A stretch of DNA of 62,507 nucleotides, the filler included, from Candidatus Zapsychrus exili (lineage in GTDB: Bacteria > Omnitrophota > Gorgyraeia > Zapsychrales > Zapsychraceae), in NCBI GenBank assembly GCA_030765585.1. It is 7 parts of 7 records of this genome, joined end to end, with 100 filler letters (N's around TTAATTAATTAA, not from the genome) between each part and the next. Parts side by side here need not be neighbours in the genome. Positions count along the whole stretch, not along the records: positions 1 to 16,588 come from JAVCCJ010000008.1; 6 more parts are not named here. The stretch is one strand, 5' to 3'. Numbering within the stretch: position 1 is the first letter of the stretch; the number at the start of each line of letters is the position of its first letter. The notes beneath the pieces are model-generated. The model worked only from the letters and a program-made list of their open reading frames with translations. It did not search any database and had not been told where the DNA came from. The position numbers were made by a program, and so were the translations under genes. Shown here piece by piece: positions 267 through 61,344 of this stretch.

Positions 267-2792
267 ATGGCAAGAGAAGCAAAAGCACGAATACGAATAA
301 ACAAATATCTTGAAGATACCGGATGGCGGTTTTTCGATACAGACTCCGGATCTGCCAATATTTGCTTGGAGACGAATGTTAAAATTACTGAACAGGCGCT
401 CAACGATCTTGGTGAGGATTTTGAAAAGACAAAAAATGGTTTTACTGATTATATCCTTTTAGATTATAAGGGCTTTCCTTTTGTAGTTTTAGAGGCAAAA
501 AAAGAGGATAAAGATCCTTTAGCTGGCAAAGAGCAGGCTCGTAAATATGCAAAGAACCTTAATGTTCGTTTTGTGATCTTGTCCAATGGTAACCTTCATT
601 ATTTCTGGGATATTGAAACAGGCAACCCGCATGTTATTACTACCTTTCCTACATGTGAATCATTGACTTTTAAGAAATCTTTTAAGCCTAATACGGATAA
701 TTTGGTTCGTGAATATGTTACTTCAGATTATATTGCTATTACTCAAAAACCAGATTATAAGAGTGACCCCAATTGGATGAACGAGGATAGACGGAATGAT
801 TTTATTAGTGATAATAGCCTTAAATTTTTAAGAGACTATCAAATAAATGCCATTAAATCTTTGCAAGATGCTGTGAAAGAAAACAAAAGCCGCTTTTTAT
901 TTGAAATGGCAACAGGTACAGGAAAAACTCTTGTTGCAGCAGGTGTTATCAAATTATTTTTAAGGACCGGAAACGCCAAGCGGGTGCTTTTCTTGGTTGA
1001 CAGATTAGAGTTAGAGGATCAGGCTTGGAAGAATTTTGTAAAATACCTTAAGTACGACTATAAATCAGTTATCTACAAAGAAAATCGCGGCGATTGGAAA
1101 AAAGCTGAAATTGTAGTCTCCACTGTTCAGTCGTTTCTTTTTAATAACAAGTACAAGGATTTATTCTCTCCGACTGACTTTGATTTGGTTATATCAGATG
1201 AGGCGCATAGATCAATAGGTGGTAATAGCCGGGCGGTTTTTGAATATTTTACCGGATATAAATTAGGGCTTACAGCAACACCTAAAGATTATCTGAAAAA
1301 AGTAGATGAAAAAAAATTAGCAGAAAGAGACCCTCGCAAATTAGAACGACGCCAGTTATTGGATACCTATAAGACTTTTGGATGCGAGGCGAGCAGTCCA
1401 ACATTTAGGTATACTCTTTTGAATGGAGTAAAAGACGGTTATCTTGTAAATCCAATTGTTGTAGATGCCCGAACAGACATAACGACAGAATTACTTTCAG
1501 AAATGGGCTACTCTGTATTGATAGAAAACGAAGAAGGCAAAGAAGAAGAAAAGATATACTTTCAAAAGGATTTTGAACGAAAATTTTTCTCGGAAAAAAC
1601 GAACGGGACATTATGCAAGACATTTTTAGAGAAAGCCCTAAAAGATCCTTTAACAGGTGAGATCGGTAAAAGCATTATTTTTTGTATTAGCCAAAATCAT
1701 GCTTCCAAAATCACACAGATACTTAATGTATTTGCACATAAAATTTATCCTGGTAAATATAATTCTGATTTTGCGGTGCAGGCAACATCTTTTATTGATA
1801 ACGCACAGCAGATGACAATTAATTTTTCAAATAATAATCTAAATGGGCATACGACCTTTAAGAGCGGCTATAATTCCAGTAAGACCCGCGTTTGTGTCAC
1901 CGTAGGAATGATGACAACGGGTTATGATTGTGAAGATATTTTAAATTTATGCTTAATGCGGCCTATCTTTTCCCCTCAAAATTTTATTCAGATGAAAGGT
2001 AGGGGAACCAGGAAATATGACTTTGTTTATAGAGAAAGAGACGACTCGGGAAAGGTGGAAAAATATATAGTCAAGAAGAAGCGCTTTAAACTTTTTGATT
2101 TTTTCGCCAATTGCGAATATTTTGAAGAAAAATTTAATTATGACGAAGTGATAGAATTGCCTCCAGAAACAGGGGGAGGTCCGGGACCTGATCCACCCCC
2201 GCCCCCACCGGTAGACGAATATGAGAGTACCAGGTTGGATCCCTTAAAGGAATTTGCCGAAACATCTATCGGTCTTGAAGGTATGAAAATTGACCGGAAG
2301 TTTTTTGAAAAGTTTGAAGAGGTTATTAAGGGTAATGAATATATTAAAGACAAAATTTATGAAGGCAAGTACGAAGAGGCAGAGAGTTACATCAAAAAAG
2401 AAGTTTTTGATAAGCCGGAAGAATATTTTAACCTTGAAAAGCTCCGCAAATCCGTTAAACTTGACCGCCGCTTAGGCTTAAGAGAAATATTAGAAAAAAT
2501 ATTTGGTCAGATTAAGAAATTTAAAACAAAGGATGATCTGCTTGAGGAAGAGATAGAAAAATTTATTTCTCTTTATCATCCCGAGAATAAGTTTATTCAT
2601 ATTATACGTCAATTCATGAAGGCATATATTTTAGAAACCGAGTTACGGGAAATTTTTAATTCTAAGGAATATGGCCGGCTTGAGACTAACCCAGGTTTTA
2701 CAATGATGGACCTAAAAGAATTAGATGGTTGGAAAGATCCCGTTGTTGAGTACATAAAAGACTATGTGCTGTTAAATACTTTTGTAACTTAA
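267..2792 (+). CDS. hsdR: Type I restriction enzyme R subunit (EcoAI-like)
   Basis: Nuclease motif TDYIL...VLEAKK, Walker A MATGTGKT, DEAH box, LTATP, QMKGRGTR. Confidence 0.9.
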   Translation: MAREAKARIRINKYLEDTGWRFFDTDSGSANICLETNVKITEQALNDLGEDFEKTKNGFTDYILLDYKGFPFVVLEAKKEDKDPLAGKEQARKYAKNLNVRFVILSNGNLHYFWDIETGNPHVITTFPTCESLTFKKSFKPNTDNLVREYVTSDYIAITQKPDYKSDPNWMNEDRRNDFISDNSLKFLRDYQINAIKSLQDAVKENKSRFLFEMATGTGKTLVAAGVIKLFLRTGNAKRVLFLVDRLELEDQAWKNFVKYLKYDYKSVIYKENRGDWKKAEIVVSTVQSFLFNNKYKDLFSPTDFDLVISDEAHRSIGGNSRAVFEYFTGYKLGLTATPKDYLKKVDEKKLAERDPRKLERRQLLDTYKTFGCEASSPTFRYTLLNGVKDGYLVNPIVVDARTDITTELLSEMGYSVLIENEEGKEEEKIYFQKDFERKFFSEKTNGTLCKTFLEKALKDPLTGEIGKSIIFCISQNHASKITQILNVFAHKIYPGKYNSDFAVQATSFIDNAQQMTINFSNNNLNGHTTFKSGYNSSKTRVCVTVGMMTTGYDCEDILNLCLMRPIFSPQNFIQMKGRGTRKYDFVYRERDDSGKVEKYIVKKKRFKLFDFFANCEYFEEKFNYDEVIELPPETGGGPGPDPPPPPPVDEYESTRLDPLKEFAETSIGLEGMKIDRKFFEKFEEVIKGNEYIKDKIYEGKYEEAESYIKKEVFDKPEEYFNLEKLRKSVKLDRRLGLREILEKIFGQIKKFKTKDDLLEEEIEKFISLYHPENKFIHIIRQFMKAYILETELREIFNSKEYGRLETNPGFTMMDLKELDGWKDPVVEYIKDYVLLNTFVT

Positions 2793-2806
2793 AGGAAAAT
2801 AAAAAT

Positions 2807-5317
2807 ATGTTAACGAGTGGAACAAAAAGACGGATTGATACGGCAAGGGATATTCTTGTAGGTAAATTACCCGATCCGAAATCACAGGTTGAGCAAATCA
2901 CGATTGCCTTAATCTATAAATTTATGGACGATATGGATAAGCAATCGGAGGAGCTTGGTGGTAAGGTAAAATTTTTTACCGGTGAATATTCAAAATATGC
3001 CTGGAGTAAAATATTTGATCCTCATGTGAGTGGTCATGAGCTTGTTGGCTTGTATGGGGAAGCTATCCAGCGGATGAACCATAATCCAAATATCCCGCAA
3101 TTATTCAGAAATATTTTTAAAAATGCCTATTTGCCGTATCGTGATCCCGAAACCTTAAAGAGTTTCCTTAAAGCTATCGGAGAGTTTGAGTATGATCATA
3201 GTGAAAAATTAGGTGATGCCTTTGAATATCTGCTTTCTGTGATGGGTTCACAGGGAGATGCAGGTCAGTTTAGGACACCAAGACATATCATTGATTTTAT
3301 GGTGAAGGTAGTTGATCCAGGGAAGAATGAAACTATTCTTGATCCTGCCTGTGGCACAGCTGGATTCCTGATTTCTTCTTATAAACACATCTTAGAGAAA
3401 AATAAAAAAGACGGCCGGATACATTTAGCACCAGCTCAAAAGAAGAGACTCATTGAAAACTTTTCAGGCTATGATATTTCACCGGATATGGTCAGGTTGT
3501 CATTAGCTAATATGTACTTGCATGAGTTTAAAAGTCCTAAGATCTATGAGTATGATACATTAACTTCCGAGGAAAAATGGCAGGAGGTTTTTGATGTTAT
3601 ATTGGCAAATCCGCCGTTCATGAGTCCAAAAGGGGGAATAAGGCCACATAAACGGTTTAGCGTGCAGGCAAAACGTTCTGAGGTGCTTTTTGTTGACTAT
3701 ATCAGTGAGCACTTAAATCCTAACGGCCGAGCGGGAATTATTGTTCCTGAAGGTATTATTTTTCAGTCAGGCACTGCTTATAAGAAACTGAGAAAGATGT
3801 TAGTTGACCACTCACTTTATGCTGTTGTTTCTTTGCCCAAGGGAGTATTCAATCCTTACTCTGGAGTTAAGACATCAATATTGATGTTAGATAAAAATCT
3901 GTCAAAAAAGACAGATAAGATTTTATTTGTAAATATCAACAATGATGGGTTTGGCTTAGGCGCCCAGAGACGAAAGATAAAAGAGAACGATCTGCCATTG
4001 GCTTTAGGGGTAATCACGAGATACAAACAGAGTATTATTGAAAATAAAGACTTTGAATTCAATGCTGATGAGGCAAAGCTTGCTTTTTTGGTTGAGCAAA
4101 CAAAAATCGCAGAAAGCAAGGATTATAGCCTAGATGGAGATGGATACAAAGAAGCTTTTGTTTATACAGGGAAATGGGATTTTGTGGAGTTAGGAGAGGT
4201 TTGCGAGATTTTAAATGGATATGCTTTTAAAAGTGGAAATTATGTTAGGGATGGCATTAGAGTTATTAGAATCACAAATGTTCAAAAAGGTATAATTGTT
4301 GATGAAAATCCAAAATTCTATCCCTTGGATACAAACGATGCCATTGAGCAATACAAGCTTGTTAAAAATGATTTATTGATGTCATTGACAGGAAATGTTG
4401 GTCGCGTTGGCTTATTGCCAGATTATCTTTTACCCGCTGCATTGAATCAGCGTGTGGCTTGCTTGAAAAGCGATAAAGGAAAAATAAACAAAAGATTTTT
4501 GTTTTATTTGTTAAATCAAGATATTTTTGAGCAAAGTTGTATTGCTTCTTCAAAAGGAATCGCCCAGAAAAATTTAAGTACAGTTTGGTTATCAAAATTT
4601 AAAATTCCTCTCCCGCCGCTTGAAGTTCAAGAACAGATTAGTACCGAGTTAGACAATTATCAAAAAATCATTGATGGCGCGCGTCAGGTGGTTGAAAACT
4701 ACAAGTCACATATAGATATTGATTCGGAATGGCCCACCATAAAGTTGGGCGATGTTTGTAATTTTAAACGAGGCCCTTTTGGCGGAAGTTTAAAAAAAGA
4801 GATTTTCGTTGAAACGGGGTATTGTGTTTATGAGCAGCGTCATGCGATTTCTGGAAGTTTTGAACAAGTGAGATATTTTATTAATAGTGAGAAATTCAAG
4901 GAGATGAAGCAATTTGAAGTTAAGCCCGGAGATCTGATCATGAGCTGTTCTGGTACTATGGGCAAGGTTGCTATAGCTCCGGATAATACTAAGAGAGGCA
5001 TTATAAATCAAGCACTTTTAAGATTAACCGCATTGGAAAAGTTAGATAAACAGTATTTGAAATATATTCTAGAAAGCTCTATTTTCCAGAAAGCGCTACA
5101 GGATAATGCGTATGGCGCAGCTATAAAAAATGTTGCTTCGGTTGGCGCGTTAAAAGATATAAAAATAGCGCTACCTAACCTAAAAATTCAAAAGGATATT
5201 GTAAAACGGCTGGACAATGAACAGAAATTAATTGACTCTAGTGGTCAACTTATTAAATCTTTTGAGCAAAAAATTAAAAACCTCATCACGAAAGTTTGGG
5301 GTGAGAAGTTAGTATGA
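2807..5317 (+). CDS. Type I RM N6-adenine methyltransferase fused to specificity subunit (HsdM-HsdS)
   Basis: GQFRTPR, DPACGTAGFL, NPPF, then two TRD/conserved-region repeats (W..VELGEVC...IPLPPLEVQ; WPTIKLGDVC...IALPNLKIQ). Confidence 0.9.
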   Translation: MLTSGTKRRIDTARDILVGKLPDPKSQVEQITIALIYKFMDDMDKQSEELGGKVKFFTGEYSKYAWSKIFDPHVSGHELVGLYGEAIQRMNHNPNIPQLFRNIFKNAYLPYRDPETLKSFLKAIGEFEYDHSEKLGDAFEYLLSVMGSQGDAGQFRTPRHIIDFMVKVVDPGKNETILDPACGTAGFLISSYKHILEKNKKDGRIHLAPAQKKRLIENFSGYDISPDMVRLSLANMYLHEFKSPKIYEYDTLTSEEKWQEVFDVILANPPFMSPKGGIRPHKRFSVQAKRSEVLFVDYISEHLNPNGRAGIIVPEGIIFQSGTAYKKLRKMLVDHSLYAVVSLPKGVFNPYSGVKTSILMLDKNLSKKTDKILFVNINNDGFGLGAQRRKIKENDLPLALGVITRYKQSIIENKDFEFNADEAKLAFLVEQTKIAESKDYSLDGDGYKEAFVYTGKWDFVELGEVCEILNGYAFKSGNYVRDGIRVIRITNVQKGIIVDENPKFYPLDTNDAIEQYKLVKNDLLMSLTGNVGRVGLLPDYLLPAALNQRVACLKSDKGKINKRFLFYLLNQDIFEQSCIASSKGIAQKNLSTVWLSKFKIPLPPLEVQEQISTELDNYQKIIDGARQVVENYKSHIDIDSEWPTIKLGDVCNFKRGPFGGSLKKEIFVETGYCVYEQRHAISGSFEQVRYFINSEKFKEMKQFEVKPGDLIMSCSGTMGKVAIAPDNTKRGIINQALLRLTALEKLDKQYLKYILESSIFQKALQDNAYGAAIKNVASVGALKDIKIALPNLKIQKDIVKRLDNEQKLIDSSGQLIKSFEQKIKNLITKVWGEKLV

Positions 5318-6000
5318 TTAAAACGCAAACACCAACCTATGCGGGTCATCGGCAGAGGATAAAGCATAAATATAAGAAATCAGGCGTAGGCGGCTGGTTG
5401 GATTATGAGGTTTTGGAGTTGGTTCTTTCTTATGCTGTGGCGCGGAAAGACACAAAACCGATCGCCAAAGAATTAGTAACTCGGTTTAAAACAATCAATG
5501 GAGTTTTAGACGCTGACGGCAAAGAGCTAAAAGCTATATCAGGCATCTCAGAACATACAACCTTGTTTTTGAAATTGTTAAAAGATATCGCCATTCTTTA
5601 TTTAGAGAATGGTTTACACAATAAAGATTTGCTTTCATCTCCCGAAGTAGTTTTTGATTACCTAAAGGCTTCTCTGAAGGGATGCGTGGATGAGGAATTC
5701 AAAGCCCTCTTTTTAAATGGCAGAAATCAGCTGATAGCGATTGAGACACTTCAGACAGGTATTGTTAGCAGAGCGGTAATTTATCCAAGGAAGATAGTTG
5801 AGAGGGCACTGCATCATCATACTGTTGGTGTTATTATCGCGCATAACCATCCCGCGGGCACATTAACACCTTCAAAGGAAGATTGCGCGGTAACAAAATC
5901 TATTAAGGATGCGCTCAAGACAGTTGAGATTAGATTATTGGATCATATCGTCATTGGCGGTAATGGCTACTTTAGTTTTAATACAAAAGGCCTTTTGTAG
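5314..6000 (+). CDS. radC: RadC-family JAB domain protein
   Basis: GHRQR N-terminus, YPRKI, AHNHPAG...PSKED, LLDHIVIG. Confidence 0.92.
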   Translation: MIKTQTPTYAGHRQRIKHKYKKSGVGGWLDYEVLELVLSYAVARKDTKPIAKELVTRFKTINGVLDADGKELKAISGISEHTTLFLKLLKDIAILYLENGLHNKDLLSSPEVVFDYLKASLKGCVDEEFKALFLNGRNQLIAIETLQTGIVSRAVIYPRKIVERALHHHTVGVIIAHNHPAGTLTPSKEDCAVTKSIKDALKTVEIRLLDHIVIGGNGYFSFNTKGLL

Positions 6001-6137
6001 TGGACGATTTATTTGATGAATTTCTGGGATACGACTTTACTATGGGCGAGGACATGGTGAAATATCCACATTACATAGAAGTTGTCGAGCGATATATTGA
6101 AAAATATATTTAATTACATAATTTAATGAGGAGAAAT

Positions 6138-7340
6138 ATGGCGAACGAAATATTTCATGATCCACAAAAGGAAATATGCGAAGTAAGGAACCAGCTTTCC
6201 TATGTAAAAAGGATTGGCTTCTTATTGGGTGCAGGTACTTCTAAGGCATTAGATATATCTGATCTTTCTGGTTTGACAAAAAAAGTAAGAGAAAAAATAG
6301 AGCAAAAATATAAAGATATTTTGAAAAACGTTGAAACGGGTTTGCAGGTAAAAGAGGATGACGATCCGTTGACAATCGAACAGATTCTCGATCAAGTGCG
6401 ATTGATAAGGCAGCTTGCAAATGATAAACCGGATAGGAACTTTGAAAAAGTGAGCGGGAAAAATGCTGCTGACTTAGACATGGAAATCTGCAATCGTATT
6501 TATGAAATTATAATAGATGAGGAGAAAGACGTTGATCTGTCCCATACAAAGAAATTTGTGACATGGCTAAATTGGTTAAGCAGAGATTATTCAAAAGAAA
6601 TTTTTACTACTAATTATGATTTGATCATAGAAAAAGCGTTGGAAAGTTTACATATTCCACATTTCGATGGATTTGTAGGTGCTCATCAGCCATTTTTCTT
6701 TTCTGAAAGCCTCGAGAGCAAAAATACATATGATATACCTCCAATCTCGTGGATAAGACTTTGGAAGCTCCATGGTTCAATAAACTGGTTTTGGAAGAAA
6801 AATAATAGTGGAAAATCCAATAAAGTTGTTCGTCTTGGAGTTGAATCTAAAAAACTTAATAATGAGAATGAATTAGTGATTTATCCTTCAAAAGAGAAAT
6901 ATGAAACTTCCAGAAAACAACCATTTATTGCCTATTTCGATAGGCTTAGGAACTTTCTCCAAGACGGGGAAGGAATTTTTGTTATAAATGGATATTCTTT
7001 TTCTGATGAGCATATTAATGCTGTGATTATTGATAGCTTAAAGCAAAATAACAGGCTTCATATTATTGGATTCTTCTTTTCCGATGATGACTTAGCGAAG
7101 ATATGTGAGCTCGGCACGTTCTTAAACTTCACTGCAATAGGTCCTCGAAAGGCAATAATTAGAGGATTCTTAGGGGAGTGGAAAAAAGCAAAATTAGATC
7201 ATTTGTTGGATAATTTTTGGGATGTGGGAGGCAATCGCCTAAAGATAGGGGATTTTAAAGAAATGGTGAAATTTCTTATGGCAATATCTGGTAAGCAGGA
7301 AAAGATCGAAGAAGTTATGAAGGAAGCAAATGATAAATGA
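6138..7340 (+). CDS. SIR2-like (SIR2_2) NADase of Sir2-HerA defence system
   Basis: LLGAGTS, FTTNYD, KLHGSINW, GYSFSDEHIN; RBS GAGGAG before ATG 6138. Confidence 0.88.
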   Translation: MANEIFHDPQKEICEVRNQLSYVKRIGFLLGAGTSKALDISDLSGLTKKVREKIEQKYKDILKNVETGLQVKEDDDPLTIEQILDQVRLIRQLANDKPDRNFEKVSGKNAADLDMEICNRIYEIIIDEEKDVDLSHTKKFVTWLNWLSRDYSKEIFTTNYDLIIEKALESLHIPHFDGFVGAHQPFFFSESLESKNTYDIPPISWIRLWKLHGSINWFWKKNNSGKSNKVVRLGVESKKLNNENELVIYPSKEKYETSRKQPFIAYFDRLRNFLQDGEGIFVINGYSFSDEHINAVIIDSLKQNNRLHIIGFFFSDDDLAKICELGTFLNFTAIGPRKAIIRGFLGEWKKAKLDHLLDNFWDVGGNRLKIGDFKEMVKFLMAISGKQEKIEEVMKEANDK

Positions 7341-9147
7341 AATTACTTATTTAGGAAAAGTAATCAATGTTAATAGCTCGAGTGTTGAAATTGAGATATC
7401 TCGAGATATTCCTTCAGCGACTCCGATTATTAACGGACGTTTATATAAATTAGGCCAAATTGGAACATTTGTAAAAATCCCTGTAGGCGGATTGACTTTG
7501 TTCGGAATTGTTTCTTCAGTAAGTAATACTCCTTCTTTAGTTGAAGTTAATAAATATGAGCCGGACTATGGCTCCAGATTTTTGCAAGTCCAACTTATTG
7601 GAGAACAATTGGGCGGAGACTCTTTTAAAAAAGGAGTCGGGACTTATCCTACAATTAATGATGAAGTGCATATAGTAACAGAGGATGATTTGAAGATCAT
7701 CTACGGCGATCACGATGATGGAGTTATTGAAATAGGAAAACATTCTTCTTCAGAAAATCTTCCTGTTTATTTGGATTTACATAATCTCATACTGAGGCAT
7801 AGTGCCATTCTCGGATCTACGGGTAGTGGAAAATCGAACACGACTGCGCATATACTTAAGCGTATTTTAAGCGATTACCCTGGTTCAAGGATTGTTTTAG
7901 TTGATACGCATGGGGAATATGCTTCTGCATTCGGGAATGGTGCAAAAGTTTTTAAGATCAACGATGCTAAGAACCCCCTATATATTCCTTTTTGGGCTAT
8001 GTCATTTGATGAGCTTTCATTTTTTTTAGTTGGTAGGCTATCTGGAAGCGAGAGGCCAGAAGATAAAAAATTACGCGAAGCTATTGTGAAACTCAAAAAG
8101 GAAAATGCATCGAAGTTAAAGGCAGGAAAAGTTAATACGGATTTTGTTACCGCAGATTCCCCTATTCCTTTCGATATACGAAAAATGTGGTATGACTTTA
8201 ATCGAGAAATTAATGCAACTTATTTTGAAGCGGCGGCGGATAAACAAACAAAAGATAAGGAAGAACTAGAAAAAGAAGGAGATCCTCAAAAATTAATTCC
8301 AGCAAAATTTAAGCCATATTCTATGGGTGCTGTTGCCCCTTTTAAGGCGAAAGAACAGACGATGTACTCGTATGAAATGAAAATACTGTCAAGGTTGAAG
8401 GATACGCGTTTTGATTTTATGTTTAATCCCGGAGATTTTTACGACATGACAAGCAAACACGATATTGATCAGTTACTTAGGGATTGGATAGACCACGAAC
8501 AGCGGCTCACGATCTTGGATTTAAACGAAGTGCCTTTCGAGCTGATTGATATATCTGTTGGATTAATAACAAGATTGATTTTTGATTCAATGTATTGGGG
8601 TAGGCATGAAGAATATACAGGGAGAAATCGAGCGATATTGATGGTTTTTGAAGAGGCACATTCCTATTTACCAAAAAACGAAAGCAGCTCACACATATAT
8701 GGATATGCGAGGAAGTCCGTTGAAAGGATATATAAAGAGGGGCGGAAGTTTGGCGTTGGAGCAATGGTTGTTACTCAGAGACCCTCTGAAATTTCTGAAA
8801 CGATTCTTGCTCAAGTGGGCACTTTTATTGCCCTTCGACTTACTAATAGTAGTGATAAGAACAACGTCCAGTCAGCTTCACCCAATAACATGAACAGCCT
8901 GATGGAGCTTTTACCATCCTTGAGAGTTGGGGAGGCAATAATTGTTGGGGAGGCAATAAATATTCCATCGCGAGTTCGAATTGAGCTTGTGGAACCAAGG
9001 CCAAGCAGCAATGATCCCAAATTGGTCGAAGGATGGATGGAGAAGTTTGCTGTGAATGTAGCGCATTACAAGAATATTGTTAGGGCATGGAGAGAACAAA
9101 AACATTTAAAAAAAAGGGGGATAGGCTATGGAAATGATACTAGTTAA
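7330..9147 (+). CDS. HerA/DUF87 ATPase
   Basis: HAS-barrel-like N-terminus, GSTGSGKS, EEAH, KEGRKFG, TQRPSE; overlaps SIR2 stop. Confidence 0.9.
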   Translation: MINEITYLGKVINVNSSSVEIEISRDIPSATPIINGRLYKLGQIGTFVKIPVGGLTLFGIVSSVSNTPSLVEVNKYEPDYGSRFLQVQLIGEQLGGDSFKKGVGTYPTINDEVHIVTEDDLKIIYGDHDDGVIEIGKHSSSENLPVYLDLHNLILRHSAILGSTGSGKSNTTAHILKRILSDYPGSRIVLVDTHGEYASAFGNGAKVFKINDAKNPLYIPFWAMSFDELSFFLVGRLSGSERPEDKKLREAIVKLKKENASKLKAGKVNTDFVTADSPIPFDIRKMWYDFNREINATYFEAAADKQTKDKEELEKEGDPQKLIPAKFKPYSMGAVAPFKAKEQTMYSYEMKILSRLKDTRFDFMFNPGDFYDMTSKHDIDQLLRDWIDHEQRLTILDLNEVPFELIDISVGLITRLIFDSMYWGRHEEYTGRNRAILMVFEEAHSYLPKNESSSHIYGYARKSVERIYKEGRKFGVGAMVVTQRPSEISETILAQVGTFIALRLTNSSDKNNVQSASPNNMNSLMELLPSLRVGEAIIVGEAINIPSRVRIELVEPRPSSNDPKLVEGWMEKFAVNVAHYKNIVRAWREQKHLKKRGIGYGNDTS

Positions 9148-9340
9148 TTCTTCAAATCTGGCGGCTATAGGGTATGATTCGGATTCTGCAGCGTTGTGTA
9201 TAGAATTTAAAGATGGTTCAGCTTATGAATATTTTGATGTGCCACAACATGAATATGATGGTTTGATGTCAGCTGATTCGCATGGTACATATGCTCATCA
9301 AAATATTTATAAGAAATATCGGCAAAATAAAATCCGATAA
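9128..9340 (+). CDS. KTSC domain protein
   Basis: SSNLAAIGYD...IEFKDG..YEYFDVP...LMSADSHG signature. Confidence 0.88.
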   Translation: MEMILVNSSNLAAIGYDSDSAALCIEFKDGSAYEYFDVPQHEYDGLMSADSHGTYAHQNIYKKYRQNKIR

Positions 9341-9348: not shown

Positions 9349-10404
9349 GTGATGTCCTTTATAAATTTAAATCAGAAGCTTAATCGTGTGGAAATAAAAG
9401 ATTTTGAGTTGTCGAACGAGGTAGTCTTTAATTACTTCAATAATCTTTCAGCAAATGAGAGGGATGAGAAACTTATTCGAGCAATTTATATAGGGGTGTT
9501 GGCATTAATGGAAGATAGAATCTCTGCATTCCTCGCAAAGACTACGAATGAGCTAGGGACGGAGTTGGAAAGCTTGAAGATGATTTTTGAAATGAAAAAA
9601 GAGTTGTTTTACAAGACAACAATCAAAGGGTTTGTTGCTGAAGAGCAAGTAGCGGAGTTTTTAAATAATTATTTCGTTGCAAAAAAAATTAACGACAAAG
9701 CAGTATTAATAGGTAATGTTACAGGAGTTTTACCGAAAAATAAAACTGGAGATATTATCTGTGAATTAAATGGCAATCCCGATTTAAGGATTGCGATTGA
9801 ATGTAAATTTGATAAAAGCATTAAACTTGGTAGTATCGATTCAAAAGATATTTTCACAAAGAAAATGGACACTGCTTGGAGCCAATTGCTGGAGGCTCAA
9901 GCCAATAGAGATTCTAAAGTTGGCATAATTGTTTTTGATGTATCGTTGGTTGATAACAGCATCCTGAAATCTTATGAAAATGTTGGTTATATCAATGGTA
10001 TTGGATTTGTCGCAGTTATTAATTCTCAGGCAGGTGATTATTCTAACCTTGCGATTGCGTATATGCTGGCAAGGGATATAGCTTTAAATACCAAAGATGT
10101 TGAATTAGACGCAACATTGCTAGCTATCATTGTTAGCCGAATCATTAAGGATATTAATGATGTTCTAACGGTTAAGAAGTTTGTTGAGAATAATATAGCC
10201 AATAATAAAGAAATCCTTAAACAGTTAGAGAAAAGTATTATGATGATGGAATTTAATCAAGAATATCTAACCAAGTTTCTCGAGGAAGGCAAACTGAATA
10301 AGAAGGATATGTTGGATTTTTATTCTGGGGAAAAAGTTAAAGAGAAATATAGGCCATTGGAAAAAGATATTGTGAAAATAGGGGACGGTTCTATTTTAAA
10401 GTAA
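9349..10404 (+). CDS. Hypothetical protein with putative PD-(D/E)xK nuclease core and helical regions
   Basis: E...TGDII...IAIECK motif; last codons (GDGSILK*) lie inside the repeat at 10381. Confidence 0.55.
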   Translation: MMSFINLNQKLNRVEIKDFELSNEVVFNYFNNLSANERDEKLIRAIYIGVLALMEDRISAFLAKTTNELGTELESLKMIFEMKKELFYKTTIKGFVAEEQVAEFLNNYFVAKKINDKAVLIGNVTGVLPKNKTGDIICELNGNPDLRIAIECKFDKSIKLGSIDSKDIFTKKMDTAWSQLLEAQANRDSKVGIIVFDVSLVDNSILKSYENVGYINGIGFVAVINSQAGDYSNLAIAYMLARDIALNTKDVELDATLLAIIVSRIIKDINDVLTVKKFVENNIANNKEILKQLEKSIMMMEFNQEYLTKFLEEGKLNKKDMLDFYSGEKVKEKYRPLEKDIVKIGDGSILK

Positions 10405-10421
10405 TTATATATTGTGTCCCC
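10381..10421 (+). repeat. Cassette-boundary element type A
   Basis: GGGGACGGTTCTATTTTAAAGTAATTATATATTGTGTCCCC; terminal GGGGAC/GTCCCC inverted repeat. Confidence 0.9.
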
Positions 10422-10441
10422 AGAATTTAGGATAACTAAAT

Positions 10442-11257
10442 ATGAACAATACATTTTTTGCCACAATTGCTGTGCAGCTTGTCGTATTCTTGGGTGTACT
10501 CTTGACACTTCGGGAGAACCAACGTCGTTTTGAAACCAACCTGTGGGAAGAACGAGAAAAAGCAAGAAAGGAAAGAGAATTTCTTGCGAAGCATAAGGCT
10601 CTGTTATCGGCCGCAGAGTCTGTAACAAGATTTATTAATTATTACATGACGCTTCCGGACAGAGAACTTCCTAAAGATGGTACCACTCCAGACGATGTCG
10701 CTGAAATGGGAGTTACACTTAATAATCTTCATTTTTACTGCGACATTGAAACCATTCAGCATTCAATAGACATGAGCCAAATACTAAGTACGTCATTTAC
10801 GAAGGCTTTAAAAGCTAAAATGCCATCTATGTTTATTGCCGATGATATTAAGATAATCGATCTTCAAATTGTGGGGCTTGAAACAATGAATAGCCAGTTT
10901 CAACAAGAAATTCTAGCGCTACTTTCGTCAGATTCATCGAAGCCACTTCTTATATCCAATAGGCAGCAGTTAGTGACCAATTTTAAAAAGATTGCAGAAC
11001 TTCATGGGAGAAAAGTCACTCTAATTAAAGCAAAATACCATGCAACAGAAGCTTGCCGTGATGTAATAAGAAAAGATCTGAAAGAGATCTATGGGGCGCT
11101 AGGTAATGTCCTGTTGATGGCCAGAAGGGAGCTTGCTTTTCCAATTGATGAAAGTCAGTATGCAACTATGCTTAATCGAGCAACTGAATTGGCTCTCGCT
11201 AACATGGAAAGTCTATTCGATGAAATAAGGGCACAGATAGCACAAAAGTTACAATAA
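10442..11257 (+). CDS. Hypothetical helical protein with N-terminal TM helix
   Basis: 271 aa ORF with a hydrophobic N-terminal stretch, bounded by type A elements. Confidence 0.65.
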   Translation: MNNTFFATIAVQLVVFLGVLLTLRENQRRFETNLWEEREKARKEREFLAKHKALLSAAESVTRFINYYMTLPDRELPKDGTTPDDVAEMGVTLNNLHFYCDIETIQHSIDMSQILSTSFTKALKAKMPSMFIADDIKIIDLQIVGLETMNSQFQQEILALLSSDSSKPLLISNRQQLVTNFKKIAELHGRKVTLIKAKYHATEACRDVIRKDLKEIYGALGNVLLMARRELAFPIDESQYATMLNRATELALANMESLFDEIRAQIAQKLQ

Positions 11258-11285
11258 TCCCAACAAAAAATAGTAAAGGAAAAGG

Positions 11286-11304
11286 GGGGACGGTTCTATT
11301 TTAA
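11286..11304 (+). repeat. Type A element, left half
   Basis: GGGGACGGTTCTATTTTAA exact core; a CCTGTCCCC right-half-like motif follows the next gene at 12135-12143. Confidence 0.85.
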
Positions 11305-11360
11305 GGGAAAAGAAGTCAGACACCTTTTTTATTGATAATAAAAAATTGGTGAATTGGTGA

Positions 11361-12110
11361 ATGGAGAAAAGGTTGAATGAATCAGATAAGCCTGCTTTAG
11401 TAGGTATTGTTCCAAGAAAGAATCTTTGGACTGTAATCCAAAATCAAAGATGGTATCATATTCCGGTTAACTCAGCTCCTCATAATGTATTGGGCGTAGA
11501 GTATGTGGCTTTTTATTTTCCTTCGGCTTTTGGAGAAAAACTTAAATATCAAGTAATTTATTATGCTCCAGTTTTAAATATAGATACTGTTAAAAGAATT
11601 CAGCTCTTTCCTGACGAACCCAAACATCCTAGGAAAGATGAGAATTATTATCAATTTCATTTAGGCGAGATTAAAGATTTGCCTCAACCTATTCCCAGCA
11701 AAAGATGGAGAAGAATTGTTCACATTCCTACAAGTTTCCAGAAATTACATTCTGCTAAGGAAATAAATGATTTATATGATACTAGCCCTTTGGAAGAAAA
11801 AATGTATAAGGCTTTGAAGAGAAAAGAAATTAATCCAGAAAGGCAATGGCATGTTCGTTTGAATAACCAGAATTATTTTTTAGATTTTTGTATATTCTGT
11901 CAAAAAGCAAATATTGATTTAGAATGTGACGGCGAAAGATATCATAATATACCTGGCGCTTATACTAGAGACCGTCTTCGTAATAATCAACTAACTAGTT
12001 TTGGTTGGCATGTTTTAAGATTTTCTGGTACAGAAATCTACAGAAAACAAAGTAATTGCCTATCCACAATTGAAAAAACTATACATGCGTTGAAGGGGCT
12101 GAAGGGTTAA
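11361..12110 (+). CDS. DUF559/Vsr-like endonuclease with extra N-terminal domain
   Basis: SPLEEKMY...YFLDF...LECDGERYH...RDRLRNNQL..FGWHVLRFSG. Confidence 0.8.
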   Translation: MEKRLNESDKPALVGIVPRKNLWTVIQNQRWYHIPVNSAPHNVLGVEYVAFYFPSAFGEKLKYQVIYYAPVLNIDTVKRIQLFPDEPKHPRKDENYYQFHLGEIKDLPQPIPSKRWRRIVHIPTSFQKLHSAKEINDLYDTSPLEEKMYKALKRKEINPERQWHVRLNNQNYFLDFCIFCQKANIDLECDGERYHNIPGAYTRDRLRNNQLTSFGWHVLRFSGTEIYRKQSNCLSTIEKTIHALKGLKG

Positions 12111-12323
12111 GGGGTTATTCTTAATAAATGGGTGCCTGTCCCCTTTTAATATTTGTACTTATTATGGACGAAATGAAGGAACTAAATATAGATATAGGGA
12201 GAAGAAAATAAGAGAGTTAGATTAGAAAAATACAAAGTCCACTGGCTCTTTTAACTTAGAAGAGATTATCTTCTCTGTTGTAGGGGAACAATAAGAAAGA
12301 TAAGAAAAAAAGGAATAATATAG

Positions 12324-13505
12324 ATGAAAAGAATAATAATAATTTTTATTGCGCTTTGTTTTTTTTCTGTAAATACTTGTAGCGGCGAAGAATTAAATCC
12401 ACCAGAAATTATGGACAAGTATGGAGAGGCAGTAGTGTTAATTGCAACAGTTAAGAGTAATAACGAAATGGGGCTTGGAAGTGGATTTATAGTTACGGAA
12501 GGCGGCGTTATTATAACAAATTACCATGTAATAGAGGGAGCTTATCCTGCTATTGTTAAGTTGAAAAATGGAGATATTTATGAAGAGATATCAGTAATAG
12601 ATTATAGTGAAAGAAAAGATATAGCTGTGATTAAAATAAAAGGTTTCGATCTACCCCTTGTTGAACTTGGTAATTCCAATGAAGTTAGGATTGGAGAAGA
12701 AATAGTTGTAATAGGCAATCCCCAAGGTTTAGAAAACACAATATCCAACGGGTTGTTATCGCAAATACGAGATACTGAGGGAGGTTATAAGCTTCATCAA
12801 ATAAGTGCGCCAATATCACCAGGAAGTAGTGGTGGACCTGTCTTCAATTTAAATGGGGAGGTTATTGGTATAGCAACTTTAACATGCGTTGAAGAATATA
12901 GTCAAAATTTAAACTTCTCGGTTCCTATAAATTATGCAAGAGCTATGATGAATGGTCCAGTAAAGCAAACTCTTGAGGAATTTTCAAAAGGTGAAGGAAG
13001 GGAGGTTGCAAAAAAATCTAAAGAAGATGATTTGACAAATTTTTTGAATGATTTCCGCGATTGCTTCAATATATATATCACAGCATGTAATCTTCTAGAT
13101 GAGGGGCGAAGAAAGACGAAAAGAAAATATGAATGGGTATATAATGAATATTGTGCTGAGGAAATTTTCATAGGATACGAGGTTAGTTCTGATATCAAAC
13201 TTTCTAGGGAAATGTTTGCAAAAGCTCTTGATGACGCAATTAATATAAATGAATTTGACACTAAAACGGAAAAGGTAAAGAAATCCCTTATTAGAGCACT
13301 TGAATTGCAAGTTAATGCTACCAGTTTTATTGATGAAGGTTATCGTATGAATTCGAAAAACTACCTAAAAGAAGGAAAGGCTAAGTGCAAAGTAGCAGAT
13401 TCGTACGTGCTAGATGCTCTTAAAGAAACATTAAAGATCGTTCCTGAATCGCATAAACAAATGCGAAAGAAAATGGATAAGAATATACAATATTTTTCGC
13501 GATAG
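12324..13505 (+). CDS. Secreted trypsin-like (S1C) serine protease with helical C-terminal domain
   Basis: Signal peptide; GSGF, TNYHV, KDIA, ISPGSSGGP catalytic triad motifs. Confidence 0.85.
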   Translation: MKRIIIIFIALCFFSVNTCSGEELNPPEIMDKYGEAVVLIATVKSNNEMGLGSGFIVTEGGVIITNYHVIEGAYPAIVKLKNGDIYEEISVIDYSERKDIAVIKIKGFDLPLVELGNSNEVRIGEEIVVIGNPQGLENTISNGLLSQIRDTEGGYKLHQISAPISPGSSGGPVFNLNGEVIGIATLTCVEEYSQNLNFSVPINYARAMMNGPVKQTLEEFSKGEGREVAKKSKEDDLTNFLNDFRDCFNIYITACNLLDEGRRKTKRKYEWVYNEYCAEEIFIGYEVSSDIKLSREMFAKALDDAININEFDTKTEKVKKSLIRALELQVNATSFIDEGYRMNSKNYLKEGKAKCKVADSYVLDALKETLKIVPESHKQMRKKMDKNIQYFSR

Positions 13506-13527
13506 TAATTTAAATAGAGAAGTAATT

Positions 13528-13619
13528 GAGGACTGGTTGTAATTTAAAGTAATTAAGCATTGCGATCGAAGTAATAAAGGGGACGGTTCTATTTTAAAAC
13601 AATTAAGTGTTGTGTCCCC
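13528..13619 (+). repeat. Two tandem type A elements (degenerate 13528-13571; full 13579-13619)
   Basis: GAGGACTGGTTGTAATTTAAAGTAATTAAGCATTGCGATCGAAG then GGGGACGGTTCTATTTTAAAACAATTAAGTGTTGTGTCCCC. Confidence 0.88.
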
Positions 13620-13655
13620 GGATTTCCCATATACGAATAATCACAGGAGGAGAAA

Positions 13656-14438
13656 ATGGAAGTTTATGAACGAAAAGATATATCAGAAATAGTGCTAGAG
13701 GATAAAATTAGACAATGCCCTGAATTAATAGAAGAGGGTCTAAAGTTTGTGGACAGACAGAAGAAAACGCCAAGAGGACCTTTGGATTTACTATTAGTTG
13801 ATTCTAAAATGGCCTTAATTGTAGCTGAATTGAAGATCGTTGAAGATGATAACATGTTGATGCAAGCATTAGATTATTATGACTATATAGCAAATAATAT
13901 CGATACGCTTGCACGTATATACAAACAGAGTAATATTGATCCAACACAAACCCCTAGATTAATGCTTATCGCACCGTCTTTTTCTCATTTACTCATTAAT
14001 CGATGTAAATGGATAACGGAAGATATTCAAATTAGTTTGTATGCTTTTCAATATATTACATTTAACCAAGGCGAGAAAGAAACTACTGTATATATACCTG
14101 TAGAAATTCAGCCACCAGTTTCGATCGAAAAAGAACCAGCTACTATTGACAAACATATAAGCTATATTATACCTAATGCGATAAAAAAGTTGGCTAAACA
14201 AATATTAGATGAGATTCAAAGTTGGGATAAAGCTAAAATCTCTATTGATAGCAAGCAATGGGGTGCATCGATTAAGGTTAGCGGTAGCGTTATCGCATAC
14301 TGGGAACCACGACGTAATTTCATACGTATATCAACCTACGATAAAGATAATAAATGGCAAAGTTCCAATATAAGCACAGAAGAACAAAACAGGCAAATTA
14401 TTGACATGGTTAAAAATTATTACACTTCATTATTGTAG
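13656..14438 (+). CDS. NucS/DUF91-like PD-(D/E)xK nuclease with C-terminal DUF5655-like domain
   Basis: LEDKI...LDLLLVD...VAELK...QALDY...LIAPSF. Confidence 0.7.
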   Translation: MEVYERKDISEIVLEDKIRQCPELIEEGLKFVDRQKKTPRGPLDLLLVDSKMALIVAELKIVEDDNMLMQALDYYDYIANNIDTLARIYKQSNIDPTQTPRLMLIAPSFSHLLINRCKWITEDIQISLYAFQYITFNQGEKETTVYIPVEIQPPVSIEKEPATIDKHISYIIPNAIKKLAKQILDEIQSWDKAKISIDSKQWGASIKVSGSVIAYWEPRRNFIRISTYDKDNKWQSSNISTEEQNRQIIDMVKNYYTSLL

Positions 14439-14488
14439 TATAAATAATCGGGTAGGGAAGGATACATAACTGAGGGTTAAACATAAAA

Positions 14489-15073
14489 ATGGTAAACAAT
14501 TTTCTAGATAAGAAATATGTAGTTATTAGCGTAATGGGACCTCATGCCGGTGAATCCGAAGGAGAAATATTTAAACGTAAGATTGGAGATGCAAAAAATA
14601 TCGGTATAACTTTTTGGCTTATGCGCTCGCGGCAAGCAAAACCCTCTCTCGTACAACGTATTTGCAAAGAAGCAAGGGAAAGAAATAAAAATGTTGTTGC
14701 CTTATTCATTGAAGCCTCTTCAACAGGAGGAGCTATGCCGACGAGCTCTGCAAATTCTGCAACATATTATTCAGCAGATAGAAAATATTGGAAGAATCTA
14801 CCAAAAGGATTAAGCCCTGTTACTGGAAAAATTGATAAAGGAGCATATGCGTTAACTTTTGATTTATTAAATTTGCATAACGGTATGATTGATTTGTGGA
14901 ATTATGCTGACTTTTTTAATCAGGATAGCCCGATACGAATTTTTCAGGGAGCCTCAACGCTATGTGCTATCAAAAAAGATATGTCTGCTCATGATAATAA
15001 AATTAAATCTCACAATAGAAAAATAATCGCAATTGGACAACTTTGTAATCCTTATTGTGTTTGGTTGAAATAG
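14489..15073 (+). CDS. Hypothetical protein
   Basis: 194 aa ORF co-oriented in the array; no family recognised. Confidence 0.6.
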   Translation: MVNNFLDKKYVVISVMGPHAGESEGEIFKRKIGDAKNIGITFWLMRSRQAKPSLVQRICKEARERNKNVVALFIEASSTGGAMPTSSANSATYYSADRKYWKNLPKGLSPVTGKIDKGAYALTFDLLNLHNGMIDLWNYADFFNQDSPIRIFQGASTLCAIKKDMSAHDNKIKSHNRKIIAIGQLCNPYCVWLK

Positions 15074-15111
15074 GATTGTCCATCAATAGTAAAATAGGGA
15101 ACTAGAAAATA

Positions 15112-15150
15112 GGGGGCGGTTCTATTTTAAAGTAATTAAGTATCGTGTCC
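15112..15150 (+). repeat. Type A element
   Basis: GGGGGCGGTTCTATTTTAAAGTAATTAAGTATCGTGTCC. Confidence 0.88.
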
Positions 15151-15181
15151 TTGGGATTTATATGTGAAAGGAGTAATAAAT

Positions 15182-16348
15182 ATGTGCTGTCTTTTTTGTA
15201 AACCGTGGGTATGGATTAAAGAACTGTCAAAAAAGAAAATAATAAAAATACTTTTTTTTATTACTCTTTTATTTATTGTTTGGGTCATTATAAAAACAAA
15301 ATTCAGTGCTATGTATTATTTGTATATAAATAATTTATATATACTTATAGCAGCAACTCTATCTAGCATTATAGCAGTTTTTACGTTTCTCTATGACGGG
15401 AAGAATAATACAAAAAAACACAGAAAGGTTATATGCGGTGCTTCATTGTTTTTGTTGTCTTTTTTTTATGTTTGTTTCCCTTTTTATCTTGTTAGCATGA
15501 AAATACCAGAAATGACAGGCAAAGAAGTTTTTCATCTAATAGATGTGTGTAAGGTGAGTTGCGACGCTTTAAGAAATTTAACACGTTTAAATTATTTGCC
15601 TATTGGACAACCAGTAGATAAATATCATATTACCGGTAATAGTTCTTTTTTTGATGCAACTATATGCTATGCGAAAGGTGATGTATATTATGCGTTAGCT
15701 TTGCAAAAATATAAGGAAGCCACAACAGAACTAAGCAAAAAATATCCGTTAGGTGAAGAAACTAAAAATGATAAAGACTATTGTGAGTACTTTTTTTACA
15801 AAGCATCTATAGAATTAAATTCTGGATTTGTCTACATTAGAAGCAACAATCAAAAAGAAGCAATAAAAGCGCTTAAAGATTCGATAAATAGCACAACTAA
15901 AGTTGCAAATAAATATAATTCTTTATCACTAAAGCAAAAAGAGTATATAACAAGTAAAAATGACAAAATCAAAGAGAGTTTTAAGGGTTTTTCATGGGCG
16001 TATTTTAATTTAGGATTATTATGTTTTGATAGTGTTATTCAAGGAATAGAATTACCAGATGATGCTAAACGAGCAAATGAAGAATCGATAACAGGGGAAG
16101 ATGTTCTTTGGCAGGCAGTACGTTATTGGGGGGATAAGGACGATTTACCTTACTATTGTTTGCTTTATGGGTATAGTAAGCAACTTGATGACGTTAAAGA
16201 TGAGAATAAAGCAACAGATATAGAAAGTAAAATAAAAAAATTAACTATAATTGCCAAGGAAAAACTTGATAAGAAGACATATGAATGTTTTTTAAAAAAA
16301 GCTGAAATGGTATATCCAGAAATAGAGGACGATTCTACTTTAAAGTAA
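15182..16348 (+). CDS. Membrane protein (about 3 TM) with TPR-like helical C-terminus
   Basis: Hydrophobic N-terminal segments, AYFNLG TPR-like motif; ends EDDSTLK* inside a type A element. Confidence 0.6.
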   Translation: MCCLFCKPWVWIKELSKKKIIKILFFITLLFIVWVIIKTKFSAMYYLYINNLYILIAATLSSIIAVFTFLYDGKNNTKKHRKVICGASLFLLSFFYVCFPFYLVSMKIPEMTGKEVFHLIDVCKVSCDALRNLTRLNYLPIGQPVDKYHITGNSSFFDATICYAKGDVYYALALQKYKEATTELSKKYPLGEETKNDKDYCEYFFYKASIELNSGFVYIRSNNQKEAIKALKDSINSTTKVANKYNSLSLKQKEYITSKNDKIKESFKGFSWAYFNLGLLCFDSVIQGIELPDDAKRANEESITGEDVLWQAVRYWGDKDDLPYYCLLYGYSKQLDDVKDENKATDIESKIKKLTIIAKEKLDKKTYECFLKKAEMVYPEIEDDSTLK

Positions 16349-16367
16349 TTAAACATTGCGATTGAAG
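16325..16367 (+). repeat. Type A element (variant)
   Basis: GAGGACGATTCTACTTTAAAGTAATTAAACATTGCGATTGAAG, near copy of 13528-13571. Confidence 0.8.
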
Positions 16368-16434
16368 GAAATCCTGAGTATTTTTGAAGGCGGTTCGCAG
16401 ATTCACTAAATAGCTATGAGAATGGAGATATAGA

Positions 16435-16588
16435 TTGAAATCCAAAATTGGAATTGTTGTCTTTATATTAATCCTTGCTGTAATCGGTGGGGGTTTTTGT
16501 TTTGCTGGGGAATTTTATCCGGCCAGCGTGAGTGATATATCCGATCGGGATTATGAACAGGCCGTTATTGAATTGATTGATAATGCCA
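16435..16588 (+). CDS. Secreted protein, probably phospholipase D/nuclease family (5' part, cut by contig end)
   Basis: Signal peptide then DRDYEQAVIELIDNA, typical of PLD-like N-termini; GGAG RBS plus TTG start. Confidence 0.55.
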
Positions 16589-59689: not shown

Positions 59690-59702
59690 CCTATATCTCC
59701 AT

Positions 59703-59721
59703 GCTTTAAAATAGAACCGTC
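59703..59721 (-). repeat. Type A element core
   Basis: Reverse strand GACGGTTCTATTTTAAAGC directly abutting the anchor-gene leader. Confidence 0.85.
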
Positions 59722-59760
59722 TTTTTTTTACACAAATACTGTAAAATCAAATTAACAAAA

Positions 59761-60690: not shown

Positions 60691-60726
60691 TTTCTCCTCC
60701 TGTGCTTATTCGTATATGGGAAATCC

Positions 60727-60767
60727 GGGGATACAACACTTAATTGTTTTAAAATAGAACCGTCCCC
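60727..60767 (-). repeat. Type A element
   Basis: Reverse strand GGGGACGGTTCTATTTTAAAACAATTAAGTGTTGTATCCCC, 1 mismatch to 13579-13619. Confidence 0.92.
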
Positions 60768-61330: not shown

Positions 61331-61344
61331 AAATATATCCTCCT

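Follow-up and report, generated by a model that had tools for sequence, protein, structure and literature searches.

Between the anti-phage genes of an array in Candidatus Zapsychrus exili, the same short intergenic sequence recurs, which raises the question of what this sequence is and whether genes are exchanged at it. The array was studied in a window (the whole stretch of DNA analysed, 62.5 kb or 62,507 nucleotides) made of seven contigs of one metagenome-assembled genome (MAG) joined with N spacers. The source MAG (G000) belongs to Omnitrophota and comprises 129 contigs and 2.04 Mb, with 34% G+C and a completeness of 96%. Copies of the element in the window lie on the contigs C102 (window 1-16588) and C111 (window 59515-62507). 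The N runs, around TTAATTAATTAA, occupy 16589-16688, 22978-23077, 29491-29590, 51614-51713, 56453-56552 and 59415-59514, and because the contigs are joined by them, adjacent window segments are without physical linkage. The element is a 51-bp chimera of two independent half-sites, which are the ends of two clades, A and B, of RAYT/TIRYT transposases. Transposases of these kinds are widespread.

Each full element consists of a left arm, arm A (AAAAGGGGACGGTTCTATTTT), a linker AAA[G/A][T/C] and a right arm, arm B (AATTAAGTATTGTGTCCCCRGAATT). An exact IUPAC pattern recovered it from 21 genome-contig and 45 metagenome-contig stretches, and a conservation profile of 94 unique copies from 62 sources displays a highly conserved block of 51 bp with a sharp drop outside; the consensus was read from a 79-copy alignment, and mean sequence identity across genomes is 81%. 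The block is symmetric, with a variable dinucleotide at its centre, and part of this variability is accounted for by the search pattern, which allowed R/Y there. In the window, the pattern GACGGTTCTATTTT with at most two mismatches gave seven matches, compared with 0.81 expected and a number that none of 100 shuffles reached. Five lie on the plus strand (10384, 11289, 13582, 15115 and 16328) and two on the minus strand (59708 and 60751), while a sixth plus-strand copy, at 13528, is degenerate and was recovered by repeat finding and nhmmer. A preliminary description of this DNA, made from the sequence alone, had reported six same-orientation copies on C102 and two more on the last contig. These sites are all present, those on C111 as one full copy and one lone left arm, yet only three of the six on C102 carry both arms, one being a left arm alone and two a degenerate left arm with another right arm (ATTGCGATYGAAG...; Table 1). 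That description had also taken GGGGAC/GTCCCC for one terminal inverted repeat, a view that has to be replaced, as these letters are instead the shared foot of two half-sites. DNA of the chimeric element folds like its shuffles (z -1.15 to +0.40), and no covariation was detected in it (score 0.134 versus 0.130+-0.006, with 120 of 500 shuffles as high). Homotypic doublets fold strongly, as seen for A-A' in locus L161 (-16.7 kcal/mol, z -7.7) and B-B' on C118 (5602-5641, z -3.5). Profile searches further revealed numerous half copies, the arms also occurring apart, linkers of 5 or ~19 nt, and some hairpin insertions in arm B. Across the 129 contigs, the element is restricted to C102, C111, C118 and C124. 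At 10381-10404 and 16325-16348, in locus L057 and on C124, an open reading frame (ORF) takes its final seven codons and its stop codon from arm A.

The origin of the arms is visible in other Omnitrophota genomes. In genome G127 (= G041), the gene for RAYT-A (P0001, 224 aa) is flanked by inverted left arms and the gene for RAYT-B (P0002, 223 aa) by inverted right arms, the two proteins being 31% identical. Pfam assigns both to Y1_Tnp (57.9 and 54.1 bits, cut-off 23) and, at E<=0.1, to this family alone, leaving a C-terminal extension of ~80 aa; with NCBIfam REP_Tyr_transpos, both score 68-70 bits, below the cut-off of 80. Among PDB structures, E. coli TnpA-REP (4ER8) matches either protein best, in an alignment that pairs the HUH motifs, and the sequences carry HIH/HVH and Y---NP motifs (YIERNP/YILLNP). 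Each protein served as a query against 401 sampled Omnitrophota genomes, and the 30 best loci per query were profile-scanned. At least one arm B was present at 20 of the 30 RAYT-B loci, 11 of them with matches on both strands, and arm A at 12 of the 30 RAYT-A loci, again with 11 having matches on both strands. The association is exclusive: all 42 profile matches at RAYT-B loci are to arm B only, all 34 at RAYT-A loci are to arm A only, and full elements number zero. Arm sequence is retained even beside proteins just 42-43% identical to the query. Matches to arm B alone tend to begin at model positions 29-32, both at RAYT-B loci (26/42) and in the arrays (8/13). Read outward, arm B starts GGGGACAC and agrees with the TIRYT motif GGGG[AT][CG]A[CG] at eight of eight positions, and arm A (GGGGACGG) does so at seven of eight. 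Within the defence island of locus L033, two ORFs of 82 aa are bounded by inverted right arms; Pfam gives no match for them, and from a by-eye alignment to P0002 we read them as putative, internally deleted RAYT-B genes.

Several further sequences accompany the arms. The alternative right arm (ATTGCGAYTGAAGGRAGTCCTGAGTATTTTTGAAGG-like) occurs at window 13552-13568 and 16343-16395, at ~15990 of L010 (the locus label of C124), in L072 and L087 and at 15304-15400 of L033; in several genomes, it is fused to sequence of arm A or of arm B, and it is possibly one end of a further, third family of elements. The only cassette junction on C102 that lacks an element holds another intergenic unit (window 12100-12145, GGGGTTATTCTTAATAAATGGGTGCCTGTCCCC), which may be a decayed left arm with a third kind of right half. 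A G+C-rich palindrome of ~20 nt sits between GTATTG and TGTCCCC of arm B in L028 (3639-3698), L062 (5098-5143), L069 (~1000-1050) and L035 (9989-10060), and the outer GTCCCCNGAATT part is tandemly duplicated in L029, L034, L059, L081 and L088 and beside RAYT-B genes. The foot GGGGAC...GTCCCC is carried by many other hairpins of the genome (C34:14891, C60:10537, C63:22905 and on other contigs, including one 56-nt palindrome present three times), and it is thus common to several repeat families of the organism.

How the elements lie relative to genes was counted over 82 full elements from 45 non-redundant sources. Both adjacent ORFs are on the element's own strand in 63 cases, 12 elements have one same-strand neighbour and a contig end, and seven have an opposite-strand neighbour. 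A single strand is kept in all 23 sources with at least two copies, at spacings of 104-3326 bp, and the median gaps from the element to its flanking ORFs are 25 and 28 nt. The preliminary description had set an ordered array against a motif scattered in random orientation, and it is the ordered array that is found, with breakpoints between related loci coinciding with the elements. It had likewise described the neighbours as co-oriented accessory genes including nucleases and a protease, and Pfam and PADLOC place them in defence families: type I restriction-modification (RM), SIR2-HerA, a DUF559-type nuclease domain, trypsin-like protease, NucS-like PDC-S11/S18, ThsB/PDC-M50, BrxL, AriA/Old-like ATPase, DrmC-like PLD and HamC. 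Multi-gene systems (RM, SIR2-HerA, PDC-M50A/B) are not interrupted by elements, and upstream of the array none lies between the genes of 267..9340.

Gene content changes at the elements. C102, C111 and C124 all end in a common upstream region and 5' end of a PLD-like gene, 95.8-97.8% identical over 165-181 bp, and the cassettes ahead of this gene differ among the three; C118 has a full-length PLD-like homologue with more elements upstream. C102 and C111 represent the same locus in two versions, and the element at 13575-13625, together with a 5' untranslated region of 37 nt, is almost identical to the C111 copy. Between L023 (12515-13069) and L067 (5162-5716), the sequences are 91% identical, and this homology runs from the element (51/51 identical) through the ORF to just before the next element, the flanks being unrelated. 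The cassette at window 10442-11257 recurs in another context in L058, 93.6% identical over 847 bp, with a decayed element before it and a full element after it, where C102 has only a left arm. Arms also interrupt genes. A zinc-ribbon ORF, complete in L022, is cut short by a left arm in L057, and on C124 (L010 1832-2089, -) arm A cuts off an N-terminal serine recombinase fragment (Pfam Resolvase 3-46) after ~50 codons of the catalytic domain, the product ending ...GDGSILK*. In L030, arm B stands alone ~170 nt past the tmRNA gene. Four more Resolvase-domain matches were noted at or near contig ends of the source genome (C105:179-601, C38:3-374, C78:103-549 and C37:4704-4934).

The C111-type joint, in which a left arm meets the PLD upstream sequence, is also present in contigs of public salt-lake runs. 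The joints in these contigs connect window positions 10407 to 15113 and 15133 to 16422, both with a side of 21 nt, and 10401 to 16422, where one letter intervenes; they either have the arrangement of C111 or are too short to be relied on. In run X1, a depth of ~77 at the PLD 5' end versus 1-9 over the cassettes hints that many variants share the PLD flank.

Of the 401 sampled genomes, 14 contain the element. They belong to many families, and none of the 14 genomes sampled from the source MAG's own family is among them; a pattern search of 40 relatives from this family and its order did not find the element either. Per genome there are 1-9 copies, gathered on one or two contigs, and 1-11 copies of each arm. 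This patchy distribution across the phylum fits horizontal spread. Element-bearing contig records are titled Omnitrophota, with some labelled Planctomycetia, one Desulfobacterales and one Patescibacteria. The arrays lie downstream of tmRNA/smpB in L025, L026, L030, L033 and L035 and of tRNA-Asp in L023. At the island edge, a large serine recombinase gene overlaps the 3' end of the RNA gene and is followed by an XRE-type helix-turn-helix (HTH) gene like that at window 32-235; in L026, the recombinase at 16208-17974 (+) overlaps the tmRNA at 17909-18300 (-), and in L023 the recombinase at 39-1751 (-) overlaps tRNA-Asp at 2-80 (+). Because of this overlap, the arrangement suggests that the whole defence island is an integrative element. 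Two candidate roles of the tmRNA were set aside: a duplicated tmRNA 3' end as the origin of the element, as tmRNA 3' ends have no likeness to it, and the genome's own tmRNA locus as the island site, as ordinary genes and no island come after the tmRNA on C123.

We infer that the elements are sites of cassette exchange. On balance, we lean towards reading the element as a gutted, chimeric transposon-end doublet at which cassettes are exchanged, most probably by a RAYT/TIRYT enzyme acting in trans together with homologous recombination. The preliminary description had proposed a junction or recombination site served by a Y1/HUH RAYT-like enzyme in trans. Its junctions hold, since gene-content breakpoints fall at the elements, and the arms do flank RAYT/TIRYT clades elsewhere in Omnitrophota; enzymatic capture or excision is a hypothesis, and the genome yielded no cognate gene. 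Any catalysis would come from a single-strand DNA nuclease and not from a tyrosine recombinase, because the half-sites belong to HUH transposon ends. E. coli TnpA-REP has been shown in vitro to cleave single-stranded DNA and to transfer strands; it binds a REP on such DNA, makes its cuts at the inverted REP (iREP) and in linkers, at times far from where it is bound, and recombines BIMEs in single-stranded form at these sites (PMC3333891). By analogy, a RAYT/TIRYT enzyme, supplied in trans or in a former host, would act on single-stranded DNA, binding an arm, cutting in the linker or at the edges of the arm and rejoining the strands. This could excise a gene unit together with one element and paste it at another element, and homologous recombination between the 51-bp repeats would contribute further shuffling. 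The arrays would travel in tmRNA/tRNA-adjacent islands, whose serine recombinase would explain their patchy, horizontal distribution.

Several observations weigh against this reading. Neither RAYT-A nor RAYT-B homologues were found in the source genome at E<=1e-40 or 1e-30, in a MAG that is 96% complete. Its three Y1_Tnp genes (on C49, C33 and C65) are flanked by other hairpins and by neither arm, and they were rejected as cognates as their flanking repeats differ; the closest one checked is 30% identical to RAYT-B. Among the 14 element-bearing genomes, four have no RAYT-B match and ten no RAYT-A match. Lists of genomes compared by eye, with G127 as the source of the queries, give RAYT-B homologues in 10 of the 14 element-bearing genomes versus 147 of 387 others and RAYT-A homologues in 4 of 14 versus 74 of 387; conversely, among the genomes whose RAYT-A is closest, three of five have the element, and among those whose RAYT-B is closest, three of seven do, against a background of 14/401. 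This enrichment is only suggestive because the genomes are related and not independent. The four public runs were available as contigs only, with no excised circle or empty site among them. Shared cassettes do not stop at a uniform place, ending before arm A in L023/L067 and after it in C102/L058, and lone left arms end at several positions. A copy number of 1-9 per genome is unlike that of an actively spreading repeat, and the MAG contigs may mix strains.

A broader proposal, which we offer tentatively and regard as rather unlikely in its full form, is that Omnitrophota run a cassette platform based on HUH single-strand DNA transposases in place of an integron integrase, with the chimeric doublets as recombination sites and RAYT/TIRYT enzymes in trans that would cut single-stranded DNA at the edges of the arms and move an element together with a defence gene from one array to another. 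Anti-phage genes would then be stockpiled and reshuffled in islands that move by serine recombinase into tmRNA/tRNA genes.

Among the alternatives, the one that survives best is that the elements are passive miniature repeats of RAYT/TIRYT origin that became inserted between genes in the past, the shuffling being due solely to RecA-type homologous recombination after horizontal island transfer, without a site-specific enzyme. Copies that are nearly identical across genomes would provide portable homology, and the low copy number, the source genome in which no cognate RAYT was found and the varying positions, relative to arm A, at which shared cassettes stop are all in keeping with it. It is probably not the whole explanation, though a possibility to be taken seriously, as homologous recombination alone appears insufficient in view of two kinds of evidence. 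The joints at arm edges on C111 (arm A to PLD), on C124 (serine recombinase), in L057 (zinc-ribbon) and in L030 (arm B past tmRNA) are without homology, which is the expected product of an enzyme and is not left by homologous recombination. In addition, the starts of arm-B-only matches cluster within the few bases given above, at RAYT-B loci and in arrays alike.

The element could instead act at the level of RNA or regulation, as an intercistronic processing site, mRNA stabiliser, protein-binding operator or antisense promoter of a long defence operon, its position at cassette borders being a by-product. REP/BIME elements of enterobacteria have been reported as intercistronic RNA or regulatory signals. 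Strict co-orientation with genes, a position 0-35 nt past stop codons and ~8-60 nt ahead of start codons, the stop codons supplied to several ORFs and minus-strand promoter-like hexamers in three copies would suit such a role. It is nevertheless improbable: the element has no Rfam match at E<=1, a terminator scan found it not terminator-like, with nothing above shuffles, promoter-like sites number 28 versus 34.7 in shuffles, the fold is weak and without covariation, as described above, and the halves occur separately as the ends of transposase genes.

Very little speaks for a double-strand site of a conventional recombinase, whether this were an integron attC of unusual kind, a site like Xer/dif or one resembling the attP of the island's large serine recombinase: the integron-like look of the array, the symmetry about the central dinucleotide and the large serine recombinases at the island edges of L023 and L026 are outweighed by arms that occur apart, with differing linkers and hairpin insertions in arm B, by a central variability that stems partly from the search pattern, by attC core sites (RYYYAAC ... 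GTTRRRY) being absent from the element ends in the 79-copy alignment and consensus, by the placing of the genome's ten tyrosine recombinase genes (PF00589), none of which is on C102, C111, C118 or C124, by the search of the 40 relatives, which did not find the element and so speaks against a conserved dif, and by serine recombinase genes whose overlap with tmRNA/tRNA 3' ends points to another target. The preliminary description had already reported no attC match, no IntI and no CRISPR structure, in agreement with these results and with an element spacing in the window of 50-2243 bp, which is not CRISPR-like. Among 109 array-locus proteins, no integrase was found except one beside tRNA-Leu/smpB in L026, and no element adjoins and matches the target of a serine recombinase, the genes in L023 and L026 overlapping the 3' ends of tRNA-Asp and tmRNA. 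Two specific candidates were rejected. A dif/Xer pattern gave single matches in the 40 relatives, all within conserved coding sequence (QDYILKQ), and a serine-recombinase attP with a central dinucleotide is at odds with arms found apart and linkers of differing length.

The favoured reading, a chimeric transposon-end doublet, can be placed among known systems. The closest description is that of TIRYT, or TIRtron (Di Nocera et al. 2013, PMC3733652), which roughly corresponds to TnpA-Y1 subclass 2.1 (Quentin et al. 2018, PMC6006769). In these two papers, RAYT-like Y1 HUH proteins of ~220 aa lie within terminal inverted repeats (TIRs), and not hairpin REPs, bearing the motif given above, and further TIR copies are found elsewhere singly, as dimers or in clusters, in moderate numbers. 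The Omnitrophota transposases resemble them in that a Y1 HUH gene lies between non-hairpin TIRs, in other genomes of the phylum and not in the source genome. They differ in several respects: the dimer here joins the ends of two different clades; the element is confined to defence islands, at cassette borders, in few copies per genome; no cognate gene was found in the source genome; and the C-terminal HTH domains reported for subclass 2.1 (PMC6006769) were not detected here by Pfam at E<=0.1.

With the BIMEs of E. coli (PMC3333891), the element shares the design of an inverted doublet of two unlike units with a variable linker, and with the REPIN-RAYT system of Pseudomonas (PMC3337134) that of a doublet of inverted repeat units with a variable linker. 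As in REPtrons, copies are extragenic, often just past stop codons, and the enzyme gene lies within its own repeats. In contrast to REP/BIME, the units are non-palindromic, the chimera does not fold, copies are fewer by tens to hundreds, and whole genes lie between successive copies. The REP foot carries a GT[AG]G tag, as reported (PMC3333891, PMC6006769), while the consensus has no such tag at the foot of either arm. Unlike REP/REPIN, the element is patchy, without vertical persistence. IS200/IS605 insertion sequences have a related Y1 transposase fold, and a strand-specific, single-strand mechanism like theirs would explain the one-directional arrays and tandem end-to-end joints. IS200/IS605 elements, however, end in subterminal hairpins of direct orientation and use a fixed tetranucleotide as target, whereas the gene-flanking ends here are inverted repeats, and no constant target sequence was found ahead of arm-B-only sites. 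Integrons, including integrase-less CALINs and those that carry defence genes, offer a likeness at the level of the array, in which a repeat resembling a recombination site bounds every cassette, the cassettes being compact, co-oriented and for the most part single units, with a cargo rich in anti-phage genes and a cassette content that varies between strains at a fixed flank. The difference lies in the lack of IntI and attC core sites and in sites that are conserved in sequence and not in structure.

The features of the two arrays are collected in Table 1.

Table 1. Genes and element copies of the C102 and C111 arrays, in window coordinates.
Position	Strand	Feature	Basis
267..9340	+	Multi-gene defence systems: type I RM (R; M+S fusion), RadC, SIR2-HerA, KTSC protein	Pfam, PADLOC, ORFs
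9349..10404	+	Cassette ORF, 351 aa, without family assignment; arm A provides its stop and final 7 codons (GDGSILK)	ORF, Pfam
10377..10427	+	Full chimeric element, linker AAAGT	Pattern, repeat and profile searches
10442..11257	+	Cassette ORF, 271 aa; also in metagenome locus L058	Sequence comparison
11282..11304	+	Arm A alone, joined to unrelated sequence past TTTTAA	Profile search
11361..12110	+	Cassette ORF, 249 aa, DUF559/MTES_1575 nuclease domain	Pfam, PADLOC
12324..13505	+	Cassette ORF, 393 aa, trypsin-like protease, signal-like N-terminus	Pfam, PADLOC
13530..13568	+	Degenerate arm A, linker and alternative right arm (ATTGCGATCGAAG...), 50 bp ahead of next full copy	Repeats, nhmmer
13575..13625	+	Full chimeric element, linker AAAAC	Pattern, profile searches
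13656..15073	+	Two ORFs with no element between, NucS_C/PDC-S11-like (260 aa) and unknown (194 aa); possibly a single two-gene cassette	ORFs, Pfam, PADLOC
15108..15158	+	Full chimeric element, foot of arm B decayed (GTCCTT)	Pattern, folding
15164..16348	+	Cassette ORF, membrane protein, no family; terminates inside next element (EDDSTLK*)	ORF, Pfam
16319..16361	+	Degenerate arm A, linker and alternative right arm; last element ahead of PLD-like gene	Pattern, nhmmer
16408..16588	+	Right flank in common with C111 and C124: start of membrane-anchored PLD-like (DrmC-like) gene (5' end) with the region upstream	Sequence comparison, PADLOC
59702..59729	-	Arm A alone (C111), fused past TTTTAAAG(C) straight to PLD-like upstream sequence	Profile search
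59761..60690	-	Cassette ORF on C111, 309 aa, PDC-S18/NucS-like	Pfam, PADLOC
60721..60771	-	Full chimeric element on C111	Pattern, profile searches
60827..62505	-	ThsB-like TIR with PDC-M50A partner, BrxL C-terminus; upstream of C111 element	Pfam, PADLOC

Other repeats of the window were noted alongside. An insertion sequence end with the C-terminus of an integrase-core-like ORF is common to window 16689-16810 and to C123 (1-130) of the source genome, and its presence at two contig termini is a likely cause of breaks in the assembly. Contig C106 holds a separate repeat family of 87 nt (TCGTCATTGCGAGCG ... CGCAATGACA) in three to four copies (window 30869-30955, 31671-31757 and 33601-33728), which is unrelated to the 51-bp element. 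At window 40372-42856, a unit of ~880-1070 bp is present in three tandem copies, 60-89% identical, which are probably paralogous genes.

What is new here is the chimeric make-up of the element, its confinement to defence islands and its coincidence with cassette borders; no literature linking REP, RAYT or TIRYT repeats to defence-cassette borders was found in a search that left subscription journals outside. In a little-studied phylum of very small bacteria, fused ends of two RAYT/TIRYT clades sit where anti-phage units are exchanged, and searching for the element is a practical way to find defence cassettes not yet known in uncultured members of the phylum. Should exchange not be catalysed by the enzymes, the elements would be selfish repeats acting as portable homology in defence islands. 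If they do, the arrays would represent a second, mechanistically distinct route to integron-like arrays, through single-strand DNA and HUH chemistry, and would provide a concrete function for 'domesticated' transposases.

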